From a virus, in IMG/VR virus record IMGVR_UViG_3300045988_169928, positions 32,001 to 96,000 of that record: a stretch of DNA of 64,000 nt, one strand, 5' to 3'. The translations under genes were made by a program, and so were the position numbers. Below are positions 1-22,090 of this stretch, in pieces. Position 1 is the first letter of the stretch. Every line of letters begins with the position of its first letter. The notes beneath the pieces are model-generated. The model was not told the DNA's origin. It did not search any database and saw only the letters and a program-made list of their open reading frames with translations.

Positions 1-3000
1 GAACTGCGAAATTTGATCCATAACTTGGACTTTGAACGTGCCAATACAAACTACTACCATATCCATGGGCATTTCCATAAGAATCAAACCAAATACCAGA
101 CGCTGAATTTGATTCGTCCCAATTAACATTGTATTGAGGTTCAATAGTATGTTCTAGTAAAGTGCTATAAGGGAGGGAACCATAAAAGGACAGTGCTGGT
201 TGGGTTGCCGGATTTCCAAAGTTCATCTCACCAGAAATACCAATCCCTGATTTACCATTAATTGAAATGTGCATTCCACCACGATAACTATCCAAAAATG
301 AATAGCTGGAATTAATTTCCAAACCTTCACTGGTTAGTTGTGTTTGCCCTGCAATTCTAACACCCAAAAAGTTACCAGGATTACTAATATGACTTAATTG
401 TAATGATCCCAAGGGGCTAAACTTAGTCTGATACTCATTCACATATTGAGTTGAACTAGTGGTCGTTTGTCCCACAAAGATACCCATACGAACACTATCT
501 ACAGAAACAACATAGGCTTTTTCATTACTACTAATACCCTTACTAATTAAATTTAGTTGTAATAGATTATTGTTAATATACTGTTTATACTCATCTTTCC
601 AAACAAAGTAAAAGTCATACGTATAATAACCGGGCATTAGTGGTTGAAATTCACCATCAATTTCAGTGTAAATACTATCATTACCGGGCTTGGCTACCCC
701 TAGGTTAATTTGTGCGAAACTAGCATTGGTTCCACTCTCGTAGTTAATAGGAATCGAAACAACAACCTTATCACCAGCAGTTAGGTTGTCTGAACGTATA
801 AGCCCCAATACCCCAAATTGGGAAGCGTCTAAGTGTGGATAAGGCATACCAAAGCGGCCACCTAGGGAAGTTAATGTATCTAATCTACCACCAATTAGCT
901 TAGATGTAAATTGGCTAAGATCAACTGCAAATGGATCGGTGACTGAAAGAGGTACCCCGTAGTTATCCCCTTGATTACCTCCCGGATTTGCTGATTCAAC
1001 ATAAACACTATGCAAATAAACATCACTTGATGGAGTATAAGCGACAATACTGTAACCACTTTGTTGGTAGCTGACTGGATTTCCGAAGAAATAGTGTGTA
1101 TTTTGAAGAGCAGTATCTGAATCTGAAACTTCAATAGTAACTCTGGCCCCATTATGCAAACCACAATGCCAAATATAAGCCCCAAAAACATAGGTTACGT
1201 TTGCAGATAGTTTAATTGTTTTATTTTGGGTCGGATATAAATCCGAATTCGATCCAAAAGTAAACAAAGATCCAACTAATCTAGGGAACTCAACAGTTGA
1301 TAAAGTCCAGCTAAGAGTATCGGAACCACCCCAGCCATTCATACCATTGCTATTCATACTTTGATTTACAGAACTGGTAATTGAATCAGTAATATTATAG
1401 TTAATAGTATACTGATTCATACTTCCTTGTTTGTCTTTATCCCAAATTGGAATATAATTTCTAGTGTCTGATACCCCATTAACTGGGGCACTGAACCGGT
1501 GGTTCCAACCATAAGAATCAGCATAAATATCACTTGTCACACCCAAAGCCCGCATAGCGTTATTAGGGGCACTACCAGTACCATTAAAGTTAACTTGACC
1601 AGTTGTCCAAGCGTTATTTAAACTAAGGTAAGAAGAGTTAACACCTGCTATTGAATTCATCAAGTTCAAGTCTTGGGACATACCAAAAGTGGTTTCACCA
1701 ATACTTGATACATGATAACGATACTTATCGGCTTCACTTAGCTTTGAATGATAAGCAGTCCCAATATCTAATTCAGACCCTTCAATTACACCATCTGAAT
1801 AAGTCCCATTAGAAATTTGAGCGTTTTTCGAGGTAGAGGTCATTGCCCCATTGCCATCAATTTTAAAACCTGAACCAAACACAATCTCACTATTTTGACT
1901 CGTCAAGGTAAGTTTATCAACAGACACATTACCATGAATTACAGCGTCTTGAGCGATTAAGGTACCAGATGAGGTTATCCACGTCTTAGTATTCCCAGAT
2001 TTATCCTTTGTAGCAAACAGACCAGCGTCACCAGCTAGAGAATCATTACTACCATAAGTGCCTGCTGTGCTTTGGCTACCAACTGATGGCCCTTGAATGG
2101 TTAAGCCACCCTTGGAAATGACAACACTACCACCACCTTGGGGAGAAACTTCCATTCCATTTTGGTCAATGGTAAAGGAGCCGTTTGCCGCTACAATCGA
2201 ACCATTAACAGACAACGTACCACTTAAAGTAAGATCTTGTCCTGAAAAGTCAACCCCTGATATATTACCTGTTGAGATGGTAGAACCTGTAATAGTAAGA
2301 TTACCATTGGTATCAACATGGAACACATCTACTCCCGACTTCTTAATTGCAAAACCATTACTTGAGTTAACTATTACCTGTGTTTTGTCTGCTGTGGCAG
2401 TTAAACCATTGTCATTAAGGGTGACACCCTTATAAGTTACGTCCTTACGAACAGCATTGGAAGATACATCGGCAATATTAGATGAATAATTAGTAGACAA
2501 CTTGTCTACCGTTACCATAAAGTTAACCCGGTTTACCTCATCTGGAGAGAAACTATATCCAGCCCGGAAGTAAGCAGTCTTAGCCGGCGCATTAGCATAT
2601 GCAACCAGTCGAGTGTTATTGGTACTAGAAATATGACCATTTGATACATAAGCGGTTAAGGTGGAAACTTGACCGTCCCCCTTCGAGCTACTTACCAACG
2701 TTTCATTGCTAGACCCTTGATAAGCAGGAGTGTGCCCGACAAAGGCAAAGGAAACCCGTCCCTGTAAATCAGCAGGTGCATAGGTAGAAGGCAATCCATA
2801 CGACTGTAACAAGGTACATAGATCTTGTGACGCTGTTTGGAAGTCGGTAGAATCTTGAATAAAGCTATCTCGGGTTGCAATTGCTACTACTAGATCTTGA
2901 CTAGAAATTGATTTTAAGTAGTTTACTAAAGCATTAGCATTATCAACCGTAGCAAACGTGTCCCAATATTGTGTATCTACCCTTCGTCCAGAATATGGAT

Positions 3001-6000
3001 CAAAAGTGGCAACAGTAGTGCCTCGCCCAGAAACAGCTAACTTAGATTGTAATAAACCAGACGTTTGAATATAAAGGTCTTGATAATTAGTTGTCGCGGC
3101 TTGAGAAACAATACTAATTTTTAGCATTCGTTCATTGTAGTAAACCCCATTCAAACTTTGTGGGTTAGTAAATTGACTATTATTACCATCTAAAGTGGAA
3201 TTTCCTTGATGGTTATTAGTACCATTAGAAATAAAATTGTGATCACTATCTGCAAACTCAACACTAGCACTAGTAGTTATTCCCGGATAAGCAGGATAAT
3301 CGTAGTGAGTTAGGAATACCCGTTGGCCCTCACTAATTGGATACCAAGGTGTATAGTATTTATTTTGTAACCAACTAGCATAGATACTGTCAGAAGGGTT
3401 AGGCGACCAAGGGTGGGCAACGGTACCTTCCTCGACCATTGGTAATCGTACATAAGCATCACAACTTTCACTCTTAGCATGGTAGATGATATGTGCTTTG
3501 TTTGCACTATTAACAGTTCCGCTGACAGCATATCTTGTCCAGTTGCTAGTTAAGGTGACTACTTTTGTAAAATCACCTTCACGACCAATCATAAATGTGC
3601 CAGACCCTTTCATTTCGACTGAGAACGTTTCTGAATCACCAATCGCAAATGGTTCTGTACTATTAGCATAGATAGCATTCCATCTACCATAGAATCCACC
3701 ACTGCTTGTGGTGCTTGTGATATGTGCTGTTGCTATGCCATCACTACCGGTATTCCAATCAACGGTTGGATTGTTTATATCTGTATTTGCAAAAGATTTT
3801 GAATTAAGCCATAGGTTTAGTCCGCCTCTATTGACAGAACTACCTTTTTGCAAAGTAGTTAAGTCCCAATAGTTACTACCCTGTGCTACCGTAATACTAT
3901 CGTCCCTAGTGTAATCTTTAATTGCATTCCCAGCAACTAACTTTACACTCCTAAAGGAAACGGTACCCTTAGTTTCACTATTGTAAACTTGACCCAATAA
4001 AGCAGTTAAAACAGACCCTTTATCCCACGTACCAGAAACAGTACACGTATAAGTTACCCAATCAGTAGTTAGTAATAACTTAGTCTCACTATCTGTACTG
4101 GTAAAGGTGCTAGTTTGGTTTGGAACACTAGGTGAAGTGGTAACTGATACTTGGGTGGTTTTATTCTGTAATTGTGAATATGCGTTCCCCCAAGCAGGGT
4201 ACATATGAACATAATCGCCGCTAACGGTACTTTTAGCTTGAACTTGGAATGTATAAGTAGTATCAGTTGAAGTATAGTCAAAAGGATAATCCCCATTGTA
4301 AGTGCTAGTCGAATCTAGAACAGGATTTGAGTAGTAAGTAACATCATCAACCATTAACAGGTTTTTATCACCATTGATATTGGCCTGTAAATTACTATCT
4401 AATGACTGAATAGTCAATTGTTGTAGTGTCCAATCGCTTTGAGTGAATGCACCGCTTGGTCTAGCAGTTGTACAGAAATAAGTTGACCCAGATGTTGTCC
4501 AAATATCCCCTAAATCATAGGGAGTAGTTGGGGTAGAGGTAAAGTTACGTTTCTTAGATGAATCAAACATCTTTACCCATGTGTACTTGGTAGGGTCATC
4601 TGAACTGGTTAGATTGTAATCAGTATAAGTACCAAAATAATTATAAGAATTATTACCAGGTGTATCTGTAAATCCTACACTACCATCTGCTGAATTAGCA
4701 TAAGCAATATGGAAATAAGTAGTTTGACCATCTGCACCTGGCTTACCTGGAACCCCATCGGCACCCTTAATTAAACTCCATGTATAATCAGTAGCTGTAC
4801 TTGACTCATTGCTACTTTCCTTGTTGTAAGCTATCCCGATATAGCTCATTCCCGTTGGTGAGTCGCTCATGCTACTCCCGCTACTATCAGTGGCATACTT
4901 AATCCACGTATAGTAAGTTTTGCCATCTACACCCTTAGCTCCTGGAATACCTTGGTCACCCTGATCACCTTTGGGACCTTGTACTAATTGCCAAGAGTAA
5001 AGTGCTGGATTAGTGCTATCAGTTTGTATGAAGTCCGTATAACTACCAATGTATTTTCTAGAACCAGGAGTATCAAGAGAAAAGTTTGTTTTACCATCAC
5101 TGCTATCAGCATAGGCAATATGGAGGTATGGTGTCTTACCATCAGCACCTGGCTTACCCGGTACCCCATCTTTACCATCTGCACCATCTGCACCCTTGAT
5201 TAATGACCAAGCGTATTTAGTAGGATCAGTGCTATCTTCAGATGTAAAGTCAACATACATACCAATATAAGTTCGATTGCTATCTGATACTGTAAAGTCA
5301 GTTTTACCGTCTAAAGAGTTAGCATAAGCAATATGAGTGTAACTTGACTTACCATCTGCACCAGCAGGTCCTTGAATACCTTGTTCACCTTTTGGGCCTT
5401 GAAGACCTTGTAAACCCTGTTCACCAGGGTCACCCTTTAGTCTAGACCATGTGTACTTAGTATGATCAGAGGAATCTTCTTCAGTAAAGTCAGTATAAGT
5501 ACCAACATATAAAGCATTAGCAAAGTAAGTTAAGTTAAAGCCATTAGTACCATCACTACTATTAGCATAGGCAAAGTGTACATAACTTGTTTTACCATCA
5601 GCACCTGGTTTACCCGGCACCCCATCTTTACCATCTGTACCATCAGTACCTTTCATTAATGACCACGTGTACTTAGTAGGGTCAGTGCTATCTTCAGATG
5701 TAAAGTCAACTAGCAAACCAATATAAGAAGCACCACTAAAGCTATCTACACTAAAATTACTCTTACCATCAGCACTAGTTGCATAAGCAATGTGGGTATA
5801 ACTAGTTTTACCGTCTGTACCAGGAATACCTTGTGGACCCTGGGTAGGAACAACTACCCATGTACCATTTTGATACTGTTTTAGTGTACCATCTGTATCT
5901 GTCCAAAAGTCACCATCATTAGGGTCAGCTGGGGCAGAACTAGCAACATAATTATTGTTAACATTATTATCAATAAACTGTACCCAATTCTTGCTAGAAA

Positions 6001-7945
6001 TATCCCATTTGTAAACATTGTACTTAGTCTTACCATCACTAGTAGAAGCAACATTTTGATACCATAAATCACCATCATTGTATTGAGTACCACTAGGTTC
6101 GGTGGCTTGATAGTAGTTATGAGGTAACTTATCTGCGGTTTCTTGGGCTTTTTCAGCGGCTGTCTTTGCGTCTTGGTAGCCCTTGAGGTTAGCTTCCTGC
6201 CAGACACTATTGGTATACTGCATAATATTGCTAGTACCATCAGAGTTAGTTTGAAGCCAAAGGTCGCCCTCTTTAACGTTAGCTCGATCTGGTTCTTGTG
6301 ACCCTTGATAGATAGAGTTAGCCTTATTAGAGGTTTCACCAACCTTCTGGTTTAACTGGGAAGTAAACTTGCTCCGATATGTTTCTAACAAGCCCATGAA
6401 GTCAGTAATTGCTTCATCAATCTTTACCCGATCAACTTTAACATTACCCTCGGTTTCAAAAATCCAATCGGTTAAGTTTTTTAAGGAGTTTTCATTCGTT
6501 TTGAGTTCGCTAACGTCAATTCCAACCGTAGTCCCATAGTCCATTAAGGCTTGGCACTGTGAATACAAAGCATTGAGTTGCTGTTGTAATTGGGCCTTAT
6601 CATGGGGGGTTAAAATGTCGGGGTCTGAACTAGCGTCCCCACTAATTTTAACCCCAGTTGAACCTGATGTTCCATTATTAACCTGAATCGAACCCGCTGT
6701 AATGGTTCCCATATCTGGACTAATATCAGACAGTTTAATAATGTTCATCTTATCAGCCGTGACTGTCTTATCCTTTAGCTTAGTACCATCAATGGTACTA
6801 TCTTCAATGTTATCCCCAGAAAAGTTCTTAACTGTAATCTTGCTAAAGTCCATGACCCCGCCGTCAAGGAACATACTAAGAGCGGATAGGCTATTTGAGT
6901 TAGAATCAAATAACTTAACATCATTGATATAAACCCCGTCCGTCCGAACTTCAAGATTAGTGGCTTGCTCCTTGGAATCAACTGTTGTGGAACTCTTTAA
7001 AGAGATAGTATCATCTTTGGTTTTCCCTAGGTCGAAAGTAACAGTCGTTGGGGCACTATCAAAATCAGCAGTATAGGTCTGATCTTCTTCACTAGCCCGA
7101 GGTAGGCCTGCCTTTTTCTTTTGGTGGCCGATATACTTGTTGAGTTGCATACCGTTCTTATCCATATGTAAGACGGTAGAAACTCCAGTAAAGGAGGTGT
7201 TAGTAAAGACTAACTCAAAATCCCCGGACTTATTAACATAAAACCGGGTAATGTGATTATCTGCGTCTAAGCCATTTGGGTTATCCTCATGGACAAGTAA
7301 CCAATCCCCGGCTTTTTCCCGTTGTGGGTCATGGATCTTTCCATCAATGGTTGAATAAGGAACCAAGGATAAGTCAGTATAAAGTTCTGAATAGTCTTGG
7401 GAAGTATCATCATCAATGACCATAAAGGAATAACCATTCAAACTTTCAAATAGCCGACCGGAACCCGATCGATAACTAATTTGACCAGAATGGTGAACGT
7501 GTTGTTCTGCTAGACCTGTTTCAGCAATGTAACCATCTTTATCATCACCACTATCAAATAGGGTTGGTGAAATAGCTTCGTATTGTTCCCCATTAGGAGC
7601 ATATACCCCAATTACAATTGGTGACGTCTTGTGACCATTAAGATAAGCGATGGCTACAGTATCACCAATCTGAACTGGGCGGTAGTGTCCATAAGTACGA
7701 CCTTCACTATCTTGGCCAAAGTAATCAAGTGGAATCCGAGCGCTCCCAGTCCCATTACCACTACCATCAGCAACAATACTAGATACCCCGCTAGTCAACT
7801 TAAAGTCTAGGGTTCCTTGGTGATAGTAAACCTTAGTAACTTTACCCAAGACAATTAAACTAGCGTCCTCACTGGAACCAATATTTACCTTAGATAAACT
7901 AGCTTGGTGTGTCGTGGGGTCAAGATTAAAGATATTATTACTCAT
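1..7945 (-). CDS. Giant tail fibre / adhesin-like structural protein. Only the 5' part is here; the gene runs past the window start, so more than 2,640 codons lie in the window. It has collagen-like Gly-X-Y runs and about six tandem ~75-aa repeat modules, followed by a Gly/Ser/Thr-rich, beta-helix-like C-terminal region.
   Basis: I translated the reverse strand by hand from the ATG at complement 7943-7945 (mRNA-sense AAGGAGG sits 10 nt upstream) and met no stop down to position 1. The ORF track shows only short ORFs here because edge-crossing ORFs are omitted. Collagen-like segments include GPQGIPGTDGKT and GDPGEQGLQGLQGPKGEQGIQGPAGADGK. Repeated modules of the form YTHIAYA.S.DGK..F.....YIG.Y.DFT.EDS.DPTKYTWS..KG show up as DNA tandem repeats at about 4690-5900. 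Confidence 0.7.
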   Translation of the reverse strand, partial: MSNNIFNLDPTTHQASLSKVNIGSSEDASLIVLGKVTKVYYHQGTLDFKLTSGVSSIVADGSGNGTGSARIPLDYFGQDSEGRTYGHYRPVQIGDTVAIAYLNGHKTSPIVIGVYAPNGEQYEAISPTLFDSGDDKDGYIAETGLAEQHVHHSGQISYRSGSGRLFESLNGYSFMVIDDDTSQDYSELYTDLSLVPYSTIDGKIHDPQREKAGDWLLVHEDNPNGLDADNHITRFYVNKSGDFELVFTNTSFTGVSTVLHMDKNGMQLNKYIGHQKKKAGLPRASEEDQTYTADFDSAPTTVTFDLGKTKDDTISLKSSTTVDSKEQATNLEVRTDGVYINDVKLFDSNSNSLSALSMFLDGGVMDFSKITVKNFSGDNIEDSTIDGTKLKDKTVTADKMNIIKLSDISPDMGTITAGSIQVNNGTSGSTGVKISGDASSDPDILTPHDKAQLQQQLNALYSQCQALMDYGTTVGIDVSELKTNENSLKNLTDWIFETEGNVKVDRVKIDEAITDFMGLLETYRSKFTSQLNQKVGETSNKANSIYQGSQEPDRANVKEGDLWLQTNSDGTSNIMQYTNSVWQEANLKGYQDAKTAAEKAQETADKLPHNYYQATEPSGTQYNDGDLWYQNVASTSDGKTKYNVYKWDISSKNWVQFIDNNVNNNYVASSAPADPNDGDFWTDTDGTLKQYQNGTWVVVPTQGPQGIPGTDGKTSYTHIAYATSADGKSNFSVDSFSGASYIGLLVDFTSEDSTDPTKYTWSLMKGTDGTDGKDGVPGKPGADGKTSYVHFAYANSSDGTNGFNLTYFANALYVGTYTDFTEEDSSDHTKYTWSRLKGDPGEQGLQGLQGPKGEQGIQGPAGADGKSSYTHIAYANSLDGKTDFTVSDSNRTYIGMYVDFTSEDSTDPTKYAWSLIKGADGADGKDGVPGKPGADGKTPYLHIAYADSSDGKTNFSLDTPGSRKYIGSYTDFIQTDSTNPALYSWQLVQGPKGDQGDQGIPGAKGVDGKTYYTWIKYATDSSGSSMSDSPTGMSYIGIAYNKESSNESSTATDYTWSLIKGADGVPGKPGADGQTTYFHIAYANSADGSVGFTDTPGNNSYNYFGTYTDYNLTSSDDPTKYTWVKMFDSSKKRNFTSTPTTPYDLGDIWTTSGSTYFCTTARPSGAFTQSDWTLQQLTIQSLDSNLQANINGDKNLLMVDDVTYYSNPVLDSTSTYNGDYPFDYTSTDTTYTFQVQAKSTVSGDYVHMYPAWGNAYSQLQNKTTQVSVTTSPSVPNQTSTFTSTDSETKLLLTTDWVTYTCTVSGTWDKGSVLTALLGQVYNSETKGTVSFRSVKLVAGNAIKDYTRDDSITVAQGSNYWDLTTLQKGSSVNRGGLNLWLNSKSFANTDINNPTVDWNTGSDGIATAHITSTTSSGGFYGRWNAIYANSTEPFAIGDSETFSVEMKGSGTFMIGREGDFTKVVTLTSNWTRYAVSGTVNSANKAHIIYHAKSESCDAYVRLPMVEEGTVAHPWSPNPSDSIYASWLQNKYYTPWYPISEGQRVFLTHYDYPAYPGITTSASVEFADSDHNFISNGTNNHQGNSTLDGNNSQFTNPQSLNGVYYNERMLKISIVSQAATTNYQDLYIQTSGLLQSKLAVSGRGTTVATFDPYSGRRVDTQYWDTFATVDNANALVNYLKSISSQDLVVAIATRDSFIQDSTDFQTASQDLCTLLQSYGLPSTYAPADLQGRVSFAFVGHTPAYQGSSNETLVSSSKGDGQVSTLTAYVSNGHISSTNNTRLVAYANAPAKTAYFRAGYSFSPDEVNRVNFMVTVDKLSTNYSSNIADVSSNAVRKDVTYKGVTLNDNGLTATADKTQVIVNSSNGFAIKKSGVDVFHVDTNGNLTITGSTISTGNISGVDFSGQDLTLSGTLSVNGSIVAANGSFTIDQNGMEVSPQGGGSVVISKGGLTIQGPSVGSQSTAGTYGSNDSLAGDAGLFATKDKSGNTKTWITSSGTLIAQDAVIHGNVSVDKLTLTSQNSEIVFGSGFKIDGNGAMTSTSKNAQISNGTYSDGVIEGSELDIGTAYHSKLSEADKYRYHVSSIGETTFGMSQDLNLMNSIAGVNSSYLSLNNAWTTGQVNFNGTGSAPNNAMRALGVTSDIYADSYGWNHRFSAPVNGVSDTRNYIPIWDKDKQGSMNQYTINYNITDSITSSVNQSMNSNGMNGWGGSDTLSWTLSTVEFPRLVGSLFTFGSNSDLYPTQNKTIKLSANVTYVFGAYIWHCGLHNGARVTIEVSDSDTALQNTHYFFGNPVSYQQSGYSIVAYTPSSDVYLHSVYVESANPGGNQGDNYGVPLSVTDPFAVDLSQFTSKLIGGRLDTLTSLGGRFGMPYPHLDASQFGVLGLIRSDNLTAGDKVVVSIPINYESGTNASFAQINLGVAKPGNDSIYTEIDGEFQPLMPGYYTYDFYFVWKDEYKQYINNNLLQLNLISKGISSNEKAYVVSVDSVRMGIFVGQTTTSSTQYVNEYQTKFSPLGSLQLSHISNPGNFLGVRIAGQTQLTSEGLEINSSYSFLDSYRGGMHISINGKSGIGISGEMNFGNPATQPALSFYGSLPYSTLLEHTIEPQYNVNWDESNSASGIWFDSYGNAHGYGSSLYWHVQSPSYGSNFAV

Positions 7946-7960
7946 ATACACCACCCCTCC

Positions 7961-8500
7961 TTAAAATTTAAGCATATACTTAACTACCTTAGAATTGGTA
8001 TTAGTATAAGTTTCTAACATTCGATTCTCATAAAAGAGTAAGGAACCTGTACTTGATACAGCATTGGCCAAAAGAGCATGACTAGCTAAGTCTTTTTGAA
8101 AATCAACAACTCCAATTTGGGTGTACTTAAAGGTATCTAATTCTGATACTGATAGGGTTCCTACTAAACATACATAACGTGCGTCTTGAGTTGGGATCCC
8201 CGTACTAGGTAAAACCGTAGTCGGGTCTACAATTGACCACGCCTTTGACTTATAAGTAATGGTTGTGTCAGTATCGGTAGATGACGTAGAAGCAGTATTT
8301 GTGTCATAACACAGATAAAGATGGTCAACCTTTAAAAAGGCTTTGGGGTCTGTTAAAGAAGTAGTTGTTTCGTTCTCTGCTTCCAGGTTATTAGAATCTG
8401 GCCAGTCAGCTTCCTTAGCAAACTCAAAGTAGAGATGACTATGATTATTAATAAAATTGATTGCTTGTTGAATATGTCCAACTTGTGTTGTAATTGCCAT
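7961..8500 (-). CDS. Hypothetical protein lying between the two fibre genes; possibly a fibre assembly or accessory protein.
   Basis: ORF of 179 aa, tightly packed with only 15 nt to the downstream giant gene. I recognise no motif. Confidence 0.4.
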   Translation of the reverse strand: MAITTQVGHIQQAINFINNHSHLYFEFAKEADWPDSNNLEAENETTTSLTDPKAFLKVDHLYLCYDTNTASTSSTDTDTTITYKSKAWSIVDPTTVLPSTGIPTQDARYVCLVGTLSVSELDTFKYTQIGVVDFQKDLASHALLANAVSSTGSLLFYENRMLETYTNTNSKVVKYMLKF

Positions 8501-8511
8501 ATTTTCCTCAC

Positions 8512-10383
8512 TTAATTTGTTTCCATTGTGAATGTTTCAGCACTATTAGCTAATGTAATTATATCACTTGGGGCGTTAAATAAATACCCTAGGTAATTAA
8601 CTGATAGGATAGTGATATTAGCTACTGTTGGCCAAACCTGAAACATGAAGTTACCCCCATCTGATAGATATGGGGCTATACTTGATAGATTAACCTTAAA
8701 GATAGTGTAATCAGAATGAACTTCATATTCAATAATTGGCTTGACCCAAAGATGGAGATTGTAGTCATATAATTCTAAACGAACATCTTGGGTTAAATCA
8801 ATGTTGGCTTGGTTTTGCAAAACAAGTTCTAATCGTTGGGTATTAGAATTAGCTAAGTTATCTAGGATAAACTGCTTAGCAGTCTGTTCACTAGATTTAA
8901 TTGCTTGCTTGTATACGGTTAAGTAACCTAAAAGATCAACCCCACCTAACAGGCTAGTTTGTGTTTGATCAACGGTAAACGAACTAGCTTGACTATCAAT
9001 TGAACTAATCAAAGTTGGTTGGGTAGTAATTTGACTACCTAACTGTTGTTTTAGGTTTTGTGAGGTAATACCCAACTCTGCTTGTTGCTTAGTTTGTAAC
9101 CAACTATTATAGATACTATTAGAAGGATTAGGTGACCAAGGAGTAGCTATACTACCCTTTTCAATTTTGATGTGTTTAATCTTTAGCAAAGTTGATTTAT
9201 TGGCATAAATAACCCAGTTAACCCAGCCACTATTCCTATTAACAGTGAAAGTATTTGATATTCTTTGCCAATCGCTAGTTAAATTAACTTGACCTAAATT
9301 ACCGTTATCACTACCTTCATAATGAAAATTGCTTCCTTGAATAAAACCATTCCCACATACATCAGCGGATAATGTATATACTTGTCCTACCTCTGGTATA
9401 AATGTACTGGCCCAAGCACCCCAATAGGGACCAAGGCCACTAATTGGTGCATTATTAGCATATTGGACATAGTCTGTTTCATCATCATACTTCTGTATAG
9501 TCTGTGTTCCGTTGTTGTTATGGAAAGGAAACTCAAATTTTGCTGTTCCTGTTAATAAGTTAGTACCACCACCAGTCGTATCAATGACTGTATCATAATC
9601 TTCTTTGTTACTCCCAATATATACTACTGGGTTATAACTAGAGTTACTGGTTGCATACTGTTTTCCCGCATTTAGGTTATCCTTGTTATAGTTAAAAGGA
9701 TCACCTACATAGGTTGCTAAGTCGAGCTTACTATTTAGATAGGCGGAATTAGTCTGGGTAAAGTTAGCATAGTCTGTATCTGAACTTTCAATAATTTGAG
9801 TGGTTGGTAAACTCAAGTCTAAAATCGGTGCTGTATTATTAATTACATTGACTAAACTTGTTACTACCCAATATACACCGGCCGGTCGAAATAGATTGAT
9901 AATCTCATTTACAATCTCACTGTAAGGGCCTTCAATTTGAACATCAATTACTGCATAACGATAGTAGGGATCAGTAAAAAATTTATGTGTATTATAATGA
10001 CTAGCATTCCAAACAAACATATCTCGCCAAGGTTCATAAATGTAGATATGATCTTGGTTAATCTTTAAGAAATCAGTTAAGGCTTTAGTTAAGGCCGGAA
10101 TGGTGTTCCGTTCATGCAAAACATGATTAACCAAAGCGGTTCGATAATCATCATCGCTTCGGTTATCCCGGTGTAACCCTAACCAACGACCCCAGTAATC
10201 AAGCCATCTACCATTAGCGGTATCAAGATATGTTTCTAGTTTAGAACTGTATAGGTCTAATTCTGTTTTATCTAACTCACTCTGTAAACTACTAATAAAA
10301 GCGTCATTAGCTGAACCATCGTCCTTAGTAATACCTTGGACGTTAAACCCCCAAAAGGGTTGTAAATTATCTTTAATTGCCAT
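8512..10383 (-). CDS. Tail fibre or baseplate-distal protein. It shares a conserved segment (..PWSPNPS.SIY.SWLQ..) with the giant fibre.
   Basis: ORF of 623 aa. The motif ATPWSPNPSNSIYNSWLQ at about 9105-9155 matches HPWSPNPSDSIYASWLQ in the giant gene at about 3375-3425 at both protein and DNA level. Confidence 0.55.
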   Translation of the reverse strand: MAIKDNLQPFWGFNVQGITKDDGSANDAFISSLQSELDKTELDLYSSKLETYLDTANGRWLDYWGRWLGLHRDNRSDDDYRTALVNHVLHERNTIPALTKALTDFLKINQDHIYIYEPWRDMFVWNASHYNTHKFFTDPYYRYAVIDVQIEGPYSEIVNEIINLFRPAGVYWVVTSLVNVINNTAPILDLSLPTTQIIESSDTDYANFTQTNSAYLNSKLDLATYVGDPFNYNKDNLNAGKQYATSNSSYNPVVYIGSNKEDYDTVIDTTGGGTNLLTGTAKFEFPFHNNNGTQTIQKYDDETDYVQYANNAPISGLGPYWGAWASTFIPEVGQVYTLSADVCGNGFIQGSNFHYEGSDNGNLGQVNLTSDWQRISNTFTVNRNSGWVNWVIYANKSTLLKIKHIKIEKGSIATPWSPNPSNSIYNSWLQTKQQAELGITSQNLKQQLGSQITTQPTLISSIDSQASSFTVDQTQTSLLGGVDLLGYLTVYKQAIKSSEQTAKQFILDNLANSNTQRLELVLQNQANIDLTQDVRLELYDYNLHLWVKPIIEYEVHSDYTIFKVNLSSIAPYLSDGGNFMFQVWPTVANITILSVNYLGYLFNAPSDIITLANSAETFTMETN

Positions 10384-10387
10384 TTAA

Positions 10388-11941
10388 TCAACCCTCGTCA
10401 ACAACACTATACAGGACTTTAGTATTTCCATTTACATAGTAGATGGTAGTCTTTGTCCATAAGTAAGGTTTGTCATCAGTCGTTTGTACATAATCACTAG
10501 ACCAGTCACCATCCGGTCGAACGGTTTCAGAATTAGCTGTCTGATAAGTAACCTCTGTCCGCCGAATACTTGTGTTATCCAATAATTCGTTAGCTTCATA
10601 GAATTGAACGTTAATGCTACCAACCCTTAGTAATTCATTGGGGTTAGTACGGTAAACGTCTACAATTTCAACCCCACGGTCAATTGTCTTGTTACCATCA
10701 GAATCTAAACTAACTGCCTGTTGCCAATTGTTACCATTCGAGGAAGCAAAGTCCTTGCGATCTCGCTTTAACCCAATTTCCCCGTAGGTGTCATTAGCTG
10801 TAATATCCACCGGTTGAAGATAAGGGTGATTAATCATTGTTCCCTTAACATTAGTCATTGAATCATCAGAGATGGTTGCATATTGAAGCATAGTATCATC
10901 TGGATAGGCGGTAATATTAACCTTGGTATCAGCAATCCCGGTATCGGAAATATCCATTACTTGCTGTTCAATATCAGAGATATAGATATTCTCACCAGCG
11001 GTAAACTGATTAATGTAGTTTTGAATGGTAGCACTAACCGTAGTTAAGAAGTCATCTGTTTGTAAAGTTTCATAATTAACTTGAACCCCAATCGATAAAG
11101 CTAAATTAGTTTTATGCGTTGGCATAACGGTTACTCGAATCCCCGCCGGCCGATATGGTTCCACGGCCTCTGCAATTTGTTGGGCTAAATCATCACTTAA
11201 ATTACCGTTAGCATCATGACAGAATAAAATAACTGAACCATATGTTTCTTCATACTCATACACTCCGGCTACGTTATTTACACTTTCTGCCGCATAAACT
11301 AATGACTGGTTAGTACCCTTAGCAATGGCCTGAATCATCTTACGGAAACGTACTTGTTCTTGATCGGTGGTTTCTTCATCGTTCCCAGTTGTAAATGCTT
11401 GAATATTAGTGACACTAGCATAGCTTCCTACGTCCGTACTAGAATCAATTACATTAGCTGGGATATTCCCGTAAGACCCTTGAACCGTACAGTAAACAGA
11501 TATGGTAAAGGTTTGGGTTCCCTTGGGAATTGTATAATCATTTTTAGTTACATAAACCTGTTCATAGGCACTATTACTAGAATAGAACTTAGTACCCCGG
11601 TTAATAATTGAAGCATTAGCCAAAGGGGCGTTCAGTGTGATTGTAATGTCCCCATAGGCCGTTGTAGCGTTTTGCTTAGAAAACCCAAAGGCACTTGTCA
11701 AACCGTCTACAATCGCTTCCTGTAAGTTCTCAAGGGTATAGTAATAGAGCTTCTCAATCTCAATTGATTCTGCTTCAATTAAAGTCCTAGTAATTGAACC
11801 CTCGGTGAAGTCATTTAAATAATCTGTGTGCGTAGTAATGTAATTAATCTGATCAGTTACCATATCGGTTGCTTTCTTAAAAGCAAAGCCGTTGGTACTA
11901 ATTGTTACTGTATTAGAATTGGTATCGACAGATACGGCCAT
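10388..11941 (-). CDS. Baseplate J-like (wedge) protein.
   Basis: ORF of 517 aa. The N-terminal region (DFTEGSITRTLIEAESIEIEKLYYYTLENLQ...) resembles the Baseplate_J family pattern. Its position in a baseplate block upstream of the fibre genes fits. The call rests on recall of the family, not on an alignment. Confidence 0.5.
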   Translation of the reverse strand: MAVSVDTNSNTVTISTNGFAFKKATDMVTDQINYITTHTDYLNDFTEGSITRTLIEAESIEIEKLYYYTLENLQEAIVDGLTSAFGFSKQNATTAYGDITITLNAPLANASIINRGTKFYSSNSAYEQVYVTKNDYTIPKGTQTFTISVYCTVQGSYGNIPANVIDSSTDVGSYASVTNIQAFTTGNDEETTDQEQVRFRKMIQAIAKGTNQSLVYAAESVNNVAGVYEYEETYGSVILFCHDANGNLSDDLAQQIAEAVEPYRPAGIRVTVMPTHKTNLALSIGVQVNYETLQTDDFLTTVSATIQNYINQFTAGENIYISDIEQQVMDISDTGIADTKVNITAYPDDTMLQYATISDDSMTNVKGTMINHPYLQPVDITANDTYGEIGLKRDRKDFASSNGNNWQQAVSLDSDGNKTIDRGVEIVDVYRTNPNELLRVGSINVQFYEANELLDNTSIRRTEVTYQTANSETVRPDGDWSSDYVQTTDDKPYLWTKTTIYYVNGNTKVLYSVVDEG

Positions 11942-11952
11942 TTAGTTCCCTC

Positions 11953-12666
11953 CTATCTTAATGAGATATTCCCCGTCTTGGAACGGTACAGATACAAGTC
12001 AAAAGCCTGATCATAGTTAATCGGGGTGACAGTAGCATTGATAAATATTTCATCATAAGTGAGTTGACTTTTAGTAATCTTACAGTCTGCAACCCTTGAA
12101 TCAGTTGTAATGGTTCGCCTTAGCTCCACAGCCGCCTCACTCAATAATTTATCATTCATTGGTTGGCCTAACATATCGACTAAACGAGAACCATAGTTAG
12201 GGTGCATAAGTAAGGTTCCCCGTCTAGTTAAGATTCTTAAAATCAAAGACTGCTGTAAATTAGCTAACCCAGATACTCGCTCAAAGGTATAACCATTATC
12301 ATCACTCTGTAATACCCCCATCTGTTCTGTTAATAACGAATCAGTTGAGATATTTAGTTTTAAGTCCATACCCAATGAAGTATCATAATAATAATTCTTA
12401 TAGTGAGCGGTGTTGCTTTCTTCAATTAGGTTTGAATTAGCAGTATCTATATCATTACTATTAGGTAATAGTAAAGACTGTCCCCATGTTAAGAGATGGT
12501 CTGGGTCTTTGAGTTGTTCCTCTGGACTGTCTACAATATACGGGTACTTTAAGTGATTCAGTTTGGCTAATGTTTGCCACTGATCTATATCATTATACAA
12601 CTTTTGGGCAATAACCCGTAAGTCCTCACCAGCCTTGATTACATAATGCTTGTATACTGACAACAC
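11953..12666 (-). CDS. Baseplate protein with an N-terminal LysM-like motif (P2 gpX-like).
   Basis: ORF of 237 aa. YVIKAGEDLRVIAQKLYNDIDQWQTLAKLNHL fits the LysM pattern, and the gene sits in the baseplate block. Confidence 0.4.
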   Translation of the reverse strand: MLSVYKHYVIKAGEDLRVIAQKLYNDIDQWQTLAKLNHLKYPYIVDSPEEQLKDPDHLLTWGQSLLLPNSNDIDTANSNLIEESNTAHYKNYYYDTSLGMDLKLNISTDSLLTEQMGVLQSDDNGYTFERVSGLANLQQSLILRILTRRGTLLMHPNYGSRLVDMLGQPMNDKLLSEAAVELRRTITTDSRVADCKITKSQLTYDEIFINATVTPINYDQAFDLYLYRSKTGNISLR

Positions 12667-12674
12667 GCCACCCC

Positions 12675-13244
12675 CTATTTTGTATGCCCATAAGTGGACA
12701 ACACATAAGCTAATCGATTTTCCAGATAACCTAAATCAATTTCAAACTTACGTAATTTATTAATAATATCCACGTAATAATCAGTTTCACGGTTCATTAT
12801 ATCTTGATGATCGCCAAACCAATCACATAACAAATTTAAATTCTTACGAATCCGTTGAATATCCACCTTAGAAATTTCATTTACTAATTCAACTTGGTTT
12901 ACCACAGCCCAGTTGAAAGCTACAATTTCCAAATATTGAGCTACCAACACCATATAAACCCCCGGGTGGGAATGAAATAAGTTAGTTTGTTCAATGTATT
13001 CCTCAAACTGACCGGTGGTAGATGAAGTATTAGTAAACTTAACTGGTAGGTAACTACTGGTAACTTTAGTAAACAGATATAGTAATCGAGAAGTTGATAA
13101 ATCCGGTTGCCCATACCCATTAAAATCAGATAAGTAACGGTCGGGTATTACAACCTTATCATCATTAGTTACATTTAATAGCTTATATAATAAATATTGC
13201 TTATAAGTAATACTTGGAAATACACTTGCTGTACTAACCGCCAT
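12675..13244 (-). CDS. Hypothetical baseplate or tail protein.
   Basis: ORF of 189 aa, operon position only. Confidence 0.35.
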   Translation of the reverse strand: MAVSTASVFPSITYKQYLLYKLLNVTNDDKVVIPDRYLSDFNGYGQPDLSTSRLLYLFTKVTSSYLPVKFTNTSSTTGQFEEYIEQTNLFHSHPGVYMVLVAQYLEIVAFNWAVVNQVELVNEISKVDIQRIRKNLNLLCDWFGDHQDIMNRETDYYVDIINKLRKFEIDLGYLENRLAYVLSTYGHTK

Positions 13245-13252
13245 CTACTCAC

Positions 13253-13843
13253 CTACTTTCCATCATTTAACATTTGTCGAACCGTATACCCAATATTAGA
13301 ATAATACAAATTAGATTGACCACTATTGTTTGCATATGGATCAGTAATTAACGTCTGTGACTTATCATCTGTACTGGCAGTATCTAATCTTCCTCGTACA
13401 ATCATGGTAATAGAATAACGTACTAAAATTGGTTCTGAAACATCTTGGGTAAAAGAATAACCATTTGGACTAATTGCCACATCATACCAATAATCATCAG
13501 TATAGTTCCAAAATTCAAGATAGTGTAAACTAGACGTTGCGGGAGGTGCCATACGAGAATCTGTATATGCGGTAAGGAAAAGCCGTAACTTTTTATAGTC
13601 CTCAAACCCTAAACCTTGACGCCAACCTGTTGTCCCAGAGATGGTAATTGTACGTTCCCCAGTACCTAGTTCCTGAACACTACCCCATTGAGCAGTATTG
13701 ATATAACTTGTTCGGGTTGCTACCTGTTCTTGGATATTTTGGGGATTGATAGCAAAATTAAAGGTATCAATTACATTCCCATTTACGTCAACTTGTTTAA
13801 ACGCTACCCGACTTAATCTGTGGTAGCCATCTGCAATTGCCAT
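13253..13843 (-). CDS. Hypothetical baseplate or tail protein.
   Basis: ORF of 196 aa, operon position only. Confidence 0.35.
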   Translation of the reverse strand: MAIADGYHRLSRVAFKQVDVNGNVIDTFNFAINPQNIQEQVATRTSYINTAQWGSVQELGTGERTITISGTTGWRQGLGFEDYKKLRLFLTAYTDSRMAPPATSSLHYLEFWNYTDDYWYDVAISPNGYSFTQDVSEPILVRYSITMIVRGRLDTASTDDKSQTLITDPYANNSGQSNLYYSNIGYTVRQMLNDGK

Positions 13844-13914
13844 TTATTTTATCCCCCCTTATTCAAATTTAATATACGAAAAAGGGAACCTATCAAGGCT
13901 CCCTTTATTAGTTA

Positions 13915-16900
13915 TTATGATACTTTCTTGCTTGGGTCGTATTGCAAGTAACAACTTAATTTACGCACTCTAGGCGTCCTGAAATTGTTAGGACTTTGCA
14001 AGTATAACCTTACCTTGAATTGTGTTGCTAAGTGGTTTTGATCAGTTGCAGTCGGTACTACCGCCTCATATACATAACGGGTAAAGTAGTTTGTCTGTGC
14101 CTTGGTACTGGTTGGTGTAGAACTGGTAGCATTAGTCTTAGTTGTAGTGCTTGAAGCTCCACCACCACTAGGAAAGTTATACCAAGTTGTCCCACCATCA
14201 ACTGAATACATTGGGTTGACTTGTGGTAAGGCAGTACCAACTTCTGGAATGTAGGCGTCATACTGGAGCTTTACATAATTGAAGGCGGCGTCACCGCTTT
14301 CATCGACATTGATACTTTCATAACTAGCGGCCTTTCCAGTTAATACAGCCACTAATGATAAATCTTCTGTGGTTAAAACAGGTGCAATATAGTCATCAGA
14401 ATTAAAGTCGGCCTTTAGTTGCATTGCAAAGGTATTCTTAAAGGAGATTACCTCGCCATCTACCGTTTGAATGCTATCATCGCTAGTAACCGCTGGAACC
14501 CCATCTGTACTTGTAGCCGAAGGCATAGCCTGATTATTGTTATTTACAGGCAACGCTAACCATGGACAGTTAGCTAAAGCAGTCGATACACTAGCCCCTG
14601 TGTAAGTTGAAGAATCACCTTGCAATACCCGAATATACCAATTCATAGACGTGTTTTGGTAGGTTAAGTAAGAGGTTAGAGCGGCCAACCGATCTAAGGC
14701 AGTTAGCCGGTTCTTATTAGTAGAACTCTTACCATCAAGATTATCCCCTAAGTCCTTTATCCATGTTTCACTAGACTTAACCCAGTCAGCAATCACAATC
14801 GGGTCAAAGAGAATCTCGCCATTCTGTTGGTACTTACATACGTTAACCGCAAACTTAATTGAGCTTGTTCCATCAGCAGTCCAAGTTTGGGCGTTGTTAG
14901 AAATAAACATTACCCCATTTGAGTTTGGTGCCGAGGTTAAAGTATCACCAACAGATACGGTAACTGTATTGGAAATCTGGACATTCTTACCAGTAGCATT
15001 CGGGTCTTTGTTACTGATTGCATTCGGGTTAGTGTTGTAAACCGTAGCACTGGTTCCGGCGCTAACAACCTTTTGACCCTTGGTTGCCGAGAACACTTCA
15101 TAAGCATTACTATCAGAAATCAAGACGATCGCATAACCCCGATTACCAGTCAAAGTAACTGAATCGGTAAATGTTACTCGAGTACCTAAACTCCCATCAT
15201 CGGAAACTTGAATCTGATCTGGCGTTAATGTAACACTAGTCCGAACCACGTTGTTAGGATAACCATCATCTGACAATTCCCGAATTTGAACAATTAAATC
15301 AGAAGTGTGAGCAGTGTCACTCTTATCAGCCTTCTTATAGAAGTAGAGGTCAACAGAGGATAATTGCCGAGTTTCACCAATGGTAAATGATTGGGCCAAC
15401 GGGTCAACAATATCAACTGAATATACCCGCTTTTCAATGATATTTTCAGTTGTCTTTAAAGTACCTTGGGCAATGTAGTTGGTGCTTGCCTGATCGTTGG
15501 CATTATCAATAATCTTAACCGTCCGAGTACCACAACGAATTACCCCACCCGGAATCGTAAAGGTACCACGGATTTCACCATTAGCATTAGTCTTAAAGGC
15601 TCCATTAGTACCTTTATAATCATCACTAGCAGGCGTTGGGTCAAGAACCGCTACCCCATCAATGGTGATCTTATATCCATCGGAAAAGGCCGGTAAGTTT
15701 TGAGCCACAAATGAAATGGTTCGTTGCCGAATATACTCAATGGCACTTTCAGTAGTGGTAGACCCACCATCGGTTAGCATATACCCGGTCTGTTGACCTT
15801 CGTTTATCCAATTAATACCTTGTAAGTTAGAGTATTGGTACTGTTGGCTAATAGCGTCAGCATAAGATTGTGTTTTACCCGTCCGTCCGACAGCTAAATC
15901 CCCATTAGTATGGTACCACCACTTATTAAGGCTAACCTTACCAGCATCAGTTTCCCGAGTAACAGTAGTAGAATCTGTATCAATCCAATTATCACTAGCT
16001 GGGTCAATTGTTAAAGTCCCATTAGCACTAAAGATATTAAATTCGTTAACATTGGTTGTCCCAGTTGAAATTGGCTGATTAATTGCCACTTCTTCATGAT
16101 ATGGTGGGGTAACTAATGACCCCTTAATTGCTACTTGTGAACTGTCAAAGTTAACATTAGGAGTTAAGTCAGCCATTGCTTGGCTAGGTAATAGGATTTC
16201 ACCATTTTCAAAGTCATAAGCAACCGTAGAATTTTCATCGTCCCGGTTATTAATCGTGTTAAAGCTATCAGAAAGAACATCTTTCATCAAGCTAGGATCT
16301 TCCGACCGAGCAACCGTTTGGTTCATGTTAGCAATTGCTAAATTGTATTCGGTGTTAGTTAGCCGGCGTCCCCATTGTTGTAGTGTTTCAAAGGTTTGTC
16401 GAGTTACAGTCTGCATAGTAAAGACTGCATTGTGGGAGTTAGGATAGATTAATACATAACCTAATTCCAAGGTATACGGGTCATTAACCACAGGTGGAGT
16501 AACTGACGCAAGTGGGGCCGGTTGCCCTTCGATAACCTTGAATGGATTTGAGTTATCCATTGTAATCCTAATCATATCAATTCGTGCTTCAAAGTACACA
16601 TAAGATACAATGATAGTCGAACCAGCTACCGGCTTAGCCCCATTTGAATCATCAATATCAATATACGTAGTTCCACCATCTGAAACCACAGTATAATCAG
16701 TACCTTGAACTGCATTAGTTGAATAGTCATAAACTACTGTATAGGACTGACCTTGATTAGGAACATTAGCACCAGCCAAAGGCTTACCAGAAAGATCTTG
16801 ACCCCAGTGAATAACGTTGTTAACGTAGGTAAAATCTACACCTGCTGTATATTGGTTGGTGTTATCATAAACCTGACGAATATAGGTAACATTATCCGGG

Positions 16901-18396: not shown

Positions 18397-18440
18397 TAAT
18401 TTTAGTCCTTTCTATAAGGTTTGTTCTACTTTAATATAGT

Positions 18441-18785
18441 CTAGTGTTCCTCATTGACTACTTGTAGTTCTTCTTGATCGGTCTTTTTTCCATACTCAAA
18501 AATCTTCTTGGGGTTAAAGCCGTCCCAATAATCAATAGGGTTGTTATCCTTGTCCACAACCTTAACTACCGGGAATGACATTGCATTATAACGGGTCTTT
18601 AACTTATCTACCAAGTGTTCCCGATAAGCAACCTTGTCCGGGTCATCAGTCGTGAAATCAGCTAGATTAGGCTTTGATTCATCACCATAGTAGTTAGTAG
18701 CAACAGCGGACTTCATGCCCCGCAACAGGGCCATCGTACGCATACAATTAGAACAGTCTGTCTTTTCATAGATTACAAAGTGCAT
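18441..18785 (-). CDS. Glutaredoxin / NrdH-like small redoxin.
   Basis: ORF of 114 aa. The N-terminus VIYEKTDCSNCMRTMALL (CxxC) and the later FPVVKV fit a thioredoxin fold of the glutaredoxin type. Confidence 0.55.
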   Translation of the reverse strand: MHFVIYEKTDCSNCMRTMALLRGMKSAVATNYYGDESKPNLADFTTDDPDKVAYREHLVDKLKTRYNAMSFPVVKVVDKDNNPIDYWDGFNPKKIFEYGKKTDQEELQVVNEEH

Positions 18786-18797
18786 TCTAGTTCCTCC

Positions 18798-22052: not shown

Positions 22053-22090
22053 TCGTAATATACAAGAAAAGACCTACTTTTCGGTAGGTC

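Follow-up and report, generated by a model that had tools for sequence, protein, structure and literature searches.

A giant gene of an LfeInf-like myophage likely joins a central-spike-type domain and a long adhesion fibre in a single chain

The window analysed here, a 64,000-nt stretch covering positions 32,001-96,000 of the IMG/VR record IMGVR_UViG_3300045988_169928, carries at its left edge a giant minus-strand open reading frame (ORF; 1..7945), whose residues are numbered from the ATG at 7945. A previous reading of this DNA, made from the letters alone (hereafter the sequence-only reading), had described the frame as open from 7945 to the window edge, a missed stop or frameshift being its stated concern; machine translation of the reverse complement of 1..7945 yielded 2,648 codons with zero stops. 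The ATG lies 15 nt downstream of the stop of the upstream gene and is served by a strong Shine-Dalgarno motif, GGAGG, read from the sequence at 7956..7960 (minus strand). The full gene was retrieved by anchoring on an exact match to the 179-aa product of the gene next to it (7961-8500), which 19 contigs carry. The gene is complete, at 2,751 codons, in four contigs (L002, L003, L005 and L006) from three gut-metagenome samples in ENA and Logan assemblies, and its first 7,945 nt are 100% identical, with 0 mismatches, between these contigs and the window. The remaining 103 codons and the stop thus lie beyond the left edge, in agreement with the earlier claim that the gene runs past the window. Identity of the window region to LfeInf, a Lactobacillus phage (Hopescreekvirus, Herelleviridae; infecting L. 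fermentum; NC_029058), is 87-95%, and a scan of IMG/VR with the N-terminal 715 aa of the giant protein returned LfeInf itself as the sole match.

The N-terminus of the giant protein is of the central-spike type. Residues 28-262 (7160..7864, minus strand) comprise OB-fold and beta-prism domains, a predicted hub plug, which in a phmmer search with the isolated N-terminus match residues 23-259 of gp112 of Staphylococcus phage 812 (PDB 9euf_B, E 2.4e-11; entry name 'GP-PDE domain-containing protein/ORF58'). Only the isolated N-terminus retrieved the 812 spike; a PDB search with the whole protein gave nothing at E<0.01, and hence no homology to solved Herelleviridae receptor-binding proteins (RBPs) of the 812 RBP1/RBP2 or A511 gp108 type. 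In phage 812, gp112 is the central spike: its OB and beta-prism domains are bound inside the hub channel, and its coiled coil, knob and phosphodiesterase petal project along the tail axis (PMC13433997). The N-terminal spike domain is conserved across 649 Herelleviridae phage records. LfeInf gp083, 90% identical to the giant protein over residues 28-262, gives a sub-threshold match to the Pfam Phage_base_V OB family at residues 82-114, as does P0058, a relative described below, and no second OB/prism domain was found elsewhere in the 64-kb window. The spike domain is followed by a stalk, residues 263-702 (5840..7159, minus strand), common to LfeInf gp083 (~90% identical to gp083 residues 1-771), in which a putative helical or coiled-coil-like stretch (~447-545) and three putative 'GDLW...W' hairpin-like repeats (560-702) were read by eye, and which at residues 324-513 is partially similar to LP65 orf97 and Bromius gp024.

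The genes next to the giant ORF, all on the minus strand, have counterparts in the 812 baseplate as well. Directly upstream is a 179-aa arm-segment homologue (7961..8500; BW3TFN, PF25691, E 9e-37), and beyond it the 623-aa ORF at 8512..10383, which the sequence-only reading took for a second fibre gene, turns out instead to encode a baseplate arm-scaffold homologue, the third member of the wedge module: in a phmmer search its residues 18-215 match 812 gp117/TmpF (9euf_H, E 5e-24), it falls in phrog_1160 ('baseplate protein'), and gp117/TmpF has an arm-scaffold role in the 812 baseplate (PMC13433997). A wedge counterpart (10388-11941; Pfam Baseplate_J), a tube-initiator counterpart (13253-13843; Pfam) and a counterpart of the tripod protein gp119 (13915-18396; E 1e-145) complete the set. 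Taken together, the gp112 homology of the N-terminus, these neighbours and the lack of a second OB/prism domain indicate that the giant protein is most probably an axial spike or fibre and not a side fibre.

The side-fibre placement, implicit in the sequence-only reading, would make the protein a peripheral fibre or RBP on the baseplate arms and its OB/prism-like N-terminus an arm-attachment domain. The gene does sit where Kayvirus phages have their tripod and RBP genes, the giant protein and the arm scaffold have a type of carbohydrate-binding module (CBM) cassette in common, and peripheral receptor binding needs some protein, for which no RBP1 or RBP2 homologue was seen in the window (none in the tail/baseplate region, 7945-23279). 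We nonetheless consider a peripheral location quite unlikely, given that within the solved 812 baseplate only the axial spike shows this N-terminal homology, that the tripod homologue at 13915-18396 can act as peripheral binder, and that the window holds no other spike candidate. The gene of a related protein, P0056, moreover lies in the canonical spike position, and collagen-module arrays such as the one described below are otherwise known from the axial Tal fibre of siphophages.

That canonical position is between the hub/weld genes and the tube-initiator gene, whereas here the spike-type gene comes next after the arm-segment gene; L019, a distant relative, has a spike-fibre gene in the canonical position. 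Relative to 812, the tripod homologue (13915-18396) occupies the hub/weld/spike site and the spike-type gene the tripod site, both within the minus-strand region 7945-23279. Lactobacillus myophages with giant spike-type proteins are already known: the N-terminal spike domain recurs (38-39% identity over ~260 aa) in LP65 orf97 (2,112 aa) and Bromius gp024 (2,377 aa), but these are encoded at the canonical site, behind the tape-measure and hub genes, and they have neither collagen runs nor BppA-type modules, their C-terminal parts being unrelated to the giant protein. A phage of the Bromius group (Harbinvirus) displays a single thin distal fibre with knobs by electron microscopy (PMC6669764). 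P0056 (1,860 aa) is a more distant single-chain spike-fibre, with its gene upstream of the tube initiator. The closest structural reference, 812 gp112 (phage K ORF58; PDB 9EUF and 9EUL; PMC13433997), belongs to the same family and likewise continues from the homologous ~235 residues into an elongated stalk, but it is 848 aa long and ends in a TNF-like knob and phosphodiesterase petal, while the 2,751-aa giant protein has a collagen-module array, CBMs, a GG-lectin-like domain and a long distal fibre in place of knob and petal. The PDB match of the giant protein ends at residue 262, before the C-terminal knob/petal of gp112, and a phosphodiesterase function, once considered, was rejected because no such domain was found. 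Two RefSeq names in the LfeInf record (NC_029058; L001 13742-17643) look wrong: gp083, which shares only the spike N-terminus, is called 'glycerophosphoryl diester phosphodiesterase', and the 57-aa gp081 is apparently misnamed 'helicase subunit of the DNA excision repair complex'.

Beyond the stalk, residues 703-1128 (4562..5839, minus strand) form an array of six units, each consisting of a Gly-X-Y run of 4-10 triplets and a ~50-aa module of the BppA-junction type. The modules start at residues 716, 788, 869, 940, 1012 and 1077 and are preceded by runs of 4, 7, 10, 7, 7 and 5 triplets, respectively; Pfam Collagen is matched above threshold (E 5.9e-9). The sequence-only reading had counted about six repeats separated by Gly-X-Y runs, and both the count and the runs, including the two that it quoted, were recovered, although the array extends over nt 5839-4562 rather than 5900-4690. 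Its description of the DNA as tandemly repeated holds loosely, with units 50-77% identical; Tandem Repeats Finder reported only short 9- to 27-nt arrays, the divergence between copies being too great for the 200-240-nt units to be detected. One pair of 180-nt segments, 86% identical and spaced 456 nt apart, indicates a two-unit duplication. The broader claim, a single very large virion protein of fibre type combining repeated modules and collagen-like runs, is supported. Repeat number, which that reading considered a plausible host-range determinant, is six in all assemblies of the window phage and ranges from 1 to 6 among relatives, a change that would alter fibre length rather than specificity.

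In Tuc2009 BppA (5e7t_B) the match to a profile of the six units (A1) falls into two halves, at residues 5-26 and 204-230 (E 4.6e-6). These are the N-terminal and junction segments of BppA, which pack together and flank its carbohydrate-binding domain (PMC4742702). In BppA (PDB 5E7T) the module halves flank a CBM, exactly as in LfeInf gp080; in the giant protein, by comparison, the six modules are bare, and CBMs stand in line further along the fibre. The closest match to the whole array is the Tal protein (gp17) of siphophage J-1, with 56% identity over 341 aa and, by our sequence count, five modules between Gly-X-Y runs (the J-1 paper says six domains), the fourth of which is 89% identical at the DNA level to module 4 of the giant gene. 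In J-1 Tal, small three-stranded BppA-junction-like domains and collagen-like linkers make up a ~65-nm trimeric axial fibre (Goulet and Cambillau, PMC9124777). The Tal proteins of the Lacticaseibacillus siphophages J-1 and PL-1 share with the giant protein an array of collagen-linked modules, in Tal as part of an axial trimeric fibre. J-1 Tal, however, has a gp27-like hub N-terminus on a non-contractile tail, unlike the spike-type (gp5/gp112-like) N-terminus seen here, and at 1,039 aa it ends in a small RBP head, whereas ~1,600 more residues follow the array in the giant protein. Judged by domain content, the giant protein would work like a Tal extension but is no Tal; the repeat architecture is already known and appears here grafted onto a myophage spike. 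A 336-nt segment of the window (4916-5251) is 82% identical to the Tal genes of siphophages J-1, PL-1, iLp84 and PLE3, which together with the 89% identity of module 4 points to exchange between phages that differ in host genus and tail type. GC content is flat over the array, with no compositional sign of import despite the J-1-like module.

By analogy with the Pfam name BppU-like_C, the ~50-aa modules might alternatively be docking sites for further proteins, making the fibre a branched one. Pfam BppU-like_C is indeed matched (E 1.8e-11 summed), but without an individually significant stretch, and the homologous BppA segments are the N-terminal and junction segments and not the BppU-binding part. 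The first module has an inserted CBM in LfeInf gp080 and several gp080-type relatives (L010, L011, P0042 and P0044 among them), as in Tuc2009 BppA, so the module is a platform able to display other domains. Against this, the J-1 Tal modules are modelled as in-line three-stranded trimeric domains (PMC9124777) and no candidate partner genes are present, gp082 and gp081 being absent from the window. We give a docking role very little credence and retain the in-line reading of the array.

Comparison with LfeInf suggests how the giant gene is put together. In LfeInf the same region holds four genes, namely gp083 (863 aa by translation, as the span in the record includes the stop), gp082 (373 aa), gp081 (57 aa) and gp080 (2,027 aa). 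The four-gene layout is also present in three further lineages, 88-92% identical (L010; L011-13; L014-15), the products measuring ~865, 373, ~57 and 1,880-2,030 aa over LfeInf and these lineages. The parts that the giant gene has in common with the LfeInf genes and their L010, L011 and L014 equivalents are 80-93% identical, with the same flanks on both sides. Residues 1-709 of the giant protein correspond to gp083 1-711 and are followed by four additional collagen-module units, module 5 then corresponding to the single module of gp083 (giant 998-1056 vs gp083 705-763, 74.6% nt identity). In the sixth Gly-X-Y run, residues 1057-1068 (4742..4777, minus strand), homology switches from the gp083 type (module 5) to the gp080 type, marking the fusion junction, and from residue 1069 the giant protein tracks gp080 from residue 223 to its end, minus one CBM (gp080 366-501); over giant 1069-1135 and gp080 223-289 the nt identity is 91%. 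The ~90-aa terminal domain of gp083, gp082, gp081, and the adaptor and first module of gp080 are nowhere in the window. The missing first module of gp080 has an inserted CBM, exactly like BppA. As for the adaptor, 13 clusters of fibre relatives start with it, in the form M(I/V)VASN..TLSN(V/I).DG.

A join of this kind could also be produced by short-read assembly, through collapse of the repeats, joining of gp083-like and gp080-like genes and loss of the intervening genes. The region does contain repeats of 60-86% identity, the join falls within one of them, and every assembly of the exact sequence comes from one short-read metagenome project. An artefact is nevertheless very improbable. At least three samples and two independent assembly pipelines gave the same sequence, in contigs of which four are complete and several partial; the repeats are too diverged for easy collapse (at most 86% over 180 nt); the array has four additional units, not fewer; and gp082 and gp081 sequence is nowhere in the 64-kb window. 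In addition, P0058 is an independent fused gene with another junction, in an unrelated sample and the same gene context. This second gene encodes 2,241 aa with one module only, and its junction passes from collagen to collagen, between GPQGVPG and IPGAPGKDGQT, unlike that of the giant gene, so that by sequence comparison P0058 appears to be an independent second fusion.

The terminal domain of the gp083 type is kept at the end of two distant spike homologues, P0006 and P0007 (35-48% identity), from which the split state is probably ancestral; the fusions would then be derived, probably through independent deletions between repeated collagen/module DNA. Module-level rearrangements of the same kind are found at the fibre N-terminus in P0041, P0046 and P0048. 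The opposite polarity, in which the single chain is ancestral and the four genes of LfeInf arose by fission, through insertion of a block comprising the terminal domain, the 373-aa gene, the 57-aa gene and the adaptor, would leave the function the same. It draws on the single-chain giant spike-fibres of LP65 and Bromius, both Lactobacillus Herelleviridae, and of P0056, but it strikes us as rather unlikely. The two fused genes of the LfeInf clade differ in junction and module content, which two deletions explain more easily than one insertion; P0006 and P0007, despite their distance, keep the gp083 terminal domain; and LfeInf shares the split layout with each of the three further close lineages that were compared. 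That phages have tolerated covalent fusion on at least two occasions makes it probable that the separate LfeInf-type proteins build the same axial fibre non-covalently.

The fibre part of the giant protein that follows the array contains two CBM-like domains. CBM-A, residues 1205-1350 (3896..4333, minus strand), is a predicted beta-sandwich domain kept in all gp080-type relatives and a member of alignment A2; its model segment has a predicted local distance difference test score (pLDDT) of 55-75, and Foldseek returns CBM folds for it, which lends weak support. The second, the CBM-B cassette, spans residues 1374-1529 (3359..3826, minus strand), with 5' boundary GGLNL and 3' boundary EEGTVAHPWSPNPSDSIYASWLQNK (nt 3359-3439). 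A cassette of the same family lies in the arm scaffold, residues 271-432 (9088..9573, minus strand; DNA repeat D9), bounded by GGGTNLL at the 5' side and PWSPNPSNSIYNSWLQTK at the 3' side. The sequence-only reading had pointed out a ~50-aa block shared by these two genes. The sharing is real, but it concerns a ~130-aa homologous domain (giant 1401-1529 vs arm scaffold 303-432, 32% identity, E 2e-12) in which near-identity is confined to the last 27 aa (18/27), the DNA matching over 53 nt at 87% and the codons of the two boundary blocks being the same at 13 of the 18 identical residues.

A profile (A2) of seven copies of the domain, contributed by the giant protein, the arm scaffold and the LfeInf, L010 and L011 fibres, matches the BppA CBM (5e7t_B, E 5.9e-6), xylanase CBM4-2 (E 1.7e-5), laminarinase CBM4 and an evolved Dit and, marginally (E 0.2), the CBM-cenC domain of the 640-aa 812 baseplate protein 9euf_8, putatively RBP1 from its length. 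Pfam CBM_4_9 matches three of the seven members (best E 4e-4), and Foldseek on a low-confidence model returned CBM4/22/11/30 folds, which is supportive only. BppA of Tuc2009 and the CBMs of evolved Dit and Tal proteins in phages of lactic acid bacteria are likewise CBM4/9-like sandwiches ending in a '...E-G-S-x-A-T-P-[WY]-x-P-x-x-S-E' strand; unlike in those systems, the same cassette family is here also present in the arm scaffold of a myophage baseplate.

Of 15 fibre proteins, seven have nothing at the cassette site and the other eight carry at least six unrelated types there, always between the conserved flanks ...TTLQKGSSVNRGGLNL and LEEGTVAHPWSPNPSDS.YASWLQN(K/R). Across five arm scaffolds, conservation exceeds 90% in the first ~270 aa and the last ~190 aa, around a variable middle with no cassette (L011), one (window, LfeInf and L014) or two (L010), unrelated in sequence and ending in the same 3' boundary. 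All variation in arm-scaffold length among close relatives (453, 617, 623, 633 and 776 aa; length variants at L010 6727-9057, L011 8074-9435 and L018 1824-3185) is in the number of CBM cassettes, and L018, the phage with the second fusion, has a cassette-free arm scaffold of 453 aa. The arm-scaffold cassette of LfeInf and the fibre cassette of P0052 share 79% identity at the protein level (169 aa) and 83% at the DNA level (504 nt), evidence that cassettes move between phages and between the two genes, while LfeInf's own fibre and arm scaffold have only a 73-nt boundary in common. In the window, too, the two genes share the boundary only, and their cassettes are of different types (32% identity), arguing against a recent exchange in this window. 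The earlier proposal of domain exchange between two receptor-binding proteins therefore stands as regards exchange between genes, as seen in the LfeInf and P0052 cassettes, and fails as regards the identity of the partners, which are a protein with a central-spike N-terminus and an arm-scaffold homologue. The shared block itself is, on these alignments, the conserved 3' boundary of an apparently swappable CBM4/9-type cassette. Such a distribution of cassettes over the relatives gives no reason to invoke a diversity-generating retroelement or a programmed frameshift as the source of the variation, although no search aimed at a reverse transcriptase or template repeat was made.

Further along, residues 1641-1738 (2732..3025, minus strand) form an ILEI/GG-type lectin-like domain (PF15711, FAM3-like; E 3e-8, 34.5 bits vs a cut-off of 27), with a model segment of pLDDT 55-70 and with matches to the same family in LfeInf gp080, P0058 and most relatives. 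The distal fibre, residues 1739-2648 in the window (1..2731, minus strand), falls in phrog_5499 ('host range and adsorption protein') and is presumed to bind the receptor. An exhaustive search of 1.84 billion representatives with the last 609 residues in the window matched five clusters; one of the five, P0060, was set aside as an unrelated coiled-coil protein matched via a short repeat. AlphaFold2 models were computed for residues 1129-1860 and 1861-2648 from alignments of 13-17 relatives (76-93% identical), and the lineage-restricted C-terminal region is weakly predicted to hold at least two beta-sandwich segments. Foldseek on both models returned mostly CBM sandwiches, to which we attach little weight, and only weak CBM16/22-like matches for the distal end. 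The G/S/T/N-rich, beta-helix-like region of the sequence-only reading corresponds to a strand-rich stretch at ~1850-2050, and not, as described there, to a segment directly after the shared block.

The interpretation that we consider likely is that the ORF encodes the central spike of an LfeInf-like Limosilactobacillus myophage (Hopescreekvirus, Herelleviridae), fused in one chain to a long adhesion fibre. Three chains would make one axial fibre, with the OB/prism domains plugging the hub channel. The stalk and the six collagen-module units would keep the distal part well ahead of the baseplate, the array acting as a semi-flexible spacer of ~50 nm (six small domains together with 120 collagen residues of ~0.29 nm). 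Binding to cell-wall glycans of Limosilactobacillus, ahead of the baseplate, would fall to the CBMs, the lectin-like domain and the lineage-specific end, the CBMs of the arm scaffolds and the tripods would next secure and orient the baseplate and, following the proposal made for phage 812, the spike-fibre would leave the channel upon triggering. The fusions themselves may have been produced by recombination between repeated collagen/module DNA.

Several points weigh against this interpretation. The axial location rests on homology of ~235 residues, and the glycerophosphodiesterase petal of the 812 spike is missing, no GDPD or other enzymatic Pfam domain being found in the giant protein or in LfeInf gp083. 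The gene lies outside the canonical spike position, the tripod and spike genes having exchanged places with respect to Kayvirus. The missing petal and the different gene position restrict the claim to a spike anchoring domain in a likely axial spike-fibre, and orthology to gp112 in every respect is not claimed. The hub candidate, on the plus strand at 61157-62158, matches residues 95-179 of the 812 hub ORF56 weakly (E 8e-5; phrog_1015), is small (333 aa, vs 808 aa for the 812 hub), has no lysin domain, and is far from the baseplate genes, adjoining helicase and SbcD genes. All assemblies of the window phage stem from one sequencing project with short reads, although it is unlikely that repeats collapsed systematically. 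Whether fusion or fission took place is deduced from distribution among relatives and not from a rooted phylogeny, and carbohydrate binding by the CBMs is inferred from family membership only. The AlphaFold2 models are poor (pLDDT 46.9 for residues 1129-1860 and 45.8 for 1861-2648), which makes the assignments of CBM-A, the distal domains and the beta-helix (~1850-2050) weak.

Two sets of similar termini among the LfeInf-type proteins bear on the arrangement of the unfused fibre. The C-termini of gp083 and gp082 (L001 13915-17643; also P0006 and P0007) contain a related ~90-aa domain, ending in ...QRATFDC.AESLN and ...KAQYTCEVNQ, and the N-termini of gp082 and gp080 contain a related adaptor, MSIVSSGQITITNLSDG and MIVASNNITLSNVNDG; neither the terminal domain nor the adaptor has a Pfam or PDB match. 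LfeInf gp082 as a whole likewise has no match in the PDB, and in Pfam gives only a chance-level match to AcrIIA4, so that an Ig-like look of the shared C-terminal domain is at most tentative. The related ends of gp083 and gp082 and the related starts of gp082 and gp080 hint at an end-to-end joint of the three proteins. A wider proposal, which we advance tentatively and regard as somewhat unlikely as a whole, combines these termini with the cassette boundaries: the LfeInf-type axial fibre would be three proteins in a plug-and-socket series, and the CBM boundaries a dedicated recombination frame. The socket may be the ~90-aa C-terminal domain common to gp083 and gp082 and the plug the N-terminal adaptor of gp082 and gp080, 'M(I/S)IV(A/S)S..IT(L/I)(S/T)N(V/L)(N/S)DG'; the fused genes in the window and in P0058 may be natural 'Rosetta stone' fusions that expose how the fibre assembles; and the GG.NL ... 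PWSPNPSDS.Y.SWLQ frame may allow a common pool of CBM cassettes to pass back and forth between fibre and baseplate, at the tail axis and on the six arms. If true, host range would be reprogrammed at two virion sites.

To our knowledge, host recognition by Herelleviridae of lactic acid bacteria is poorly known, and we know of nothing for Hopescreekvirus. The building blocks described here are all known, namely the Herelleviridae central spike, the J-1-type collagen-module fibre and the BppA-type CBM cassettes, so that the value of the locus lies in comparison and engineering, not in a new concept; what is new is the single gene joined inside a collagen run, the recurrence of the fusion and the two-site cassette system. 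Public annotation is misleading at this locus, with a spike labelled as phosphodiesterase and a 57-aa gene as helicase subunit, and the comparison with the solved phage 812 baseplate gives a corrected map of the baseplate genes. The natural fused and split versions of the fibre predict protein contacts and sites for joining chimeras, and a bounded CBM cassette that is absent, single, double or replaced in two virion proteins offers a ready-made design rule for host-range engineering in phages of Limosilactobacillus, a genus relevant to food and bioethanol fermentation and to the gut. The locus also illustrates how phages rebuild their host-recognition gear via recombination at short repeated sequences.

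Other genes of the window call for brief comment. On the minus strand, a thioredoxin-like 114-aa ORF (18441-18785; Thioredoxin_2 E 1.4e-5, just under the cut-off) lies between the tape-measure-type and tripod genes. A 1,084-aa ORF without a match in the PDB is grouped by PHROGs with tape-measure/tail-lysin proteins. Two minus-strand ORFs that overlap by 71 nt (22091-22705 and 22635-23279) both match tail assembly chaperone families, in the arrangement usual for a programmed frameshift product; one PHROG names the pair 'RNA polymerase beta subunit', which looks mis-annotated. HNH/homing-endonuclease ORFs (40021-40833, minus strand; 52490-53428, plus strand) are spread over the structural and replication regions, one of them directly upstream of the tail sheath gene (53509-55374).

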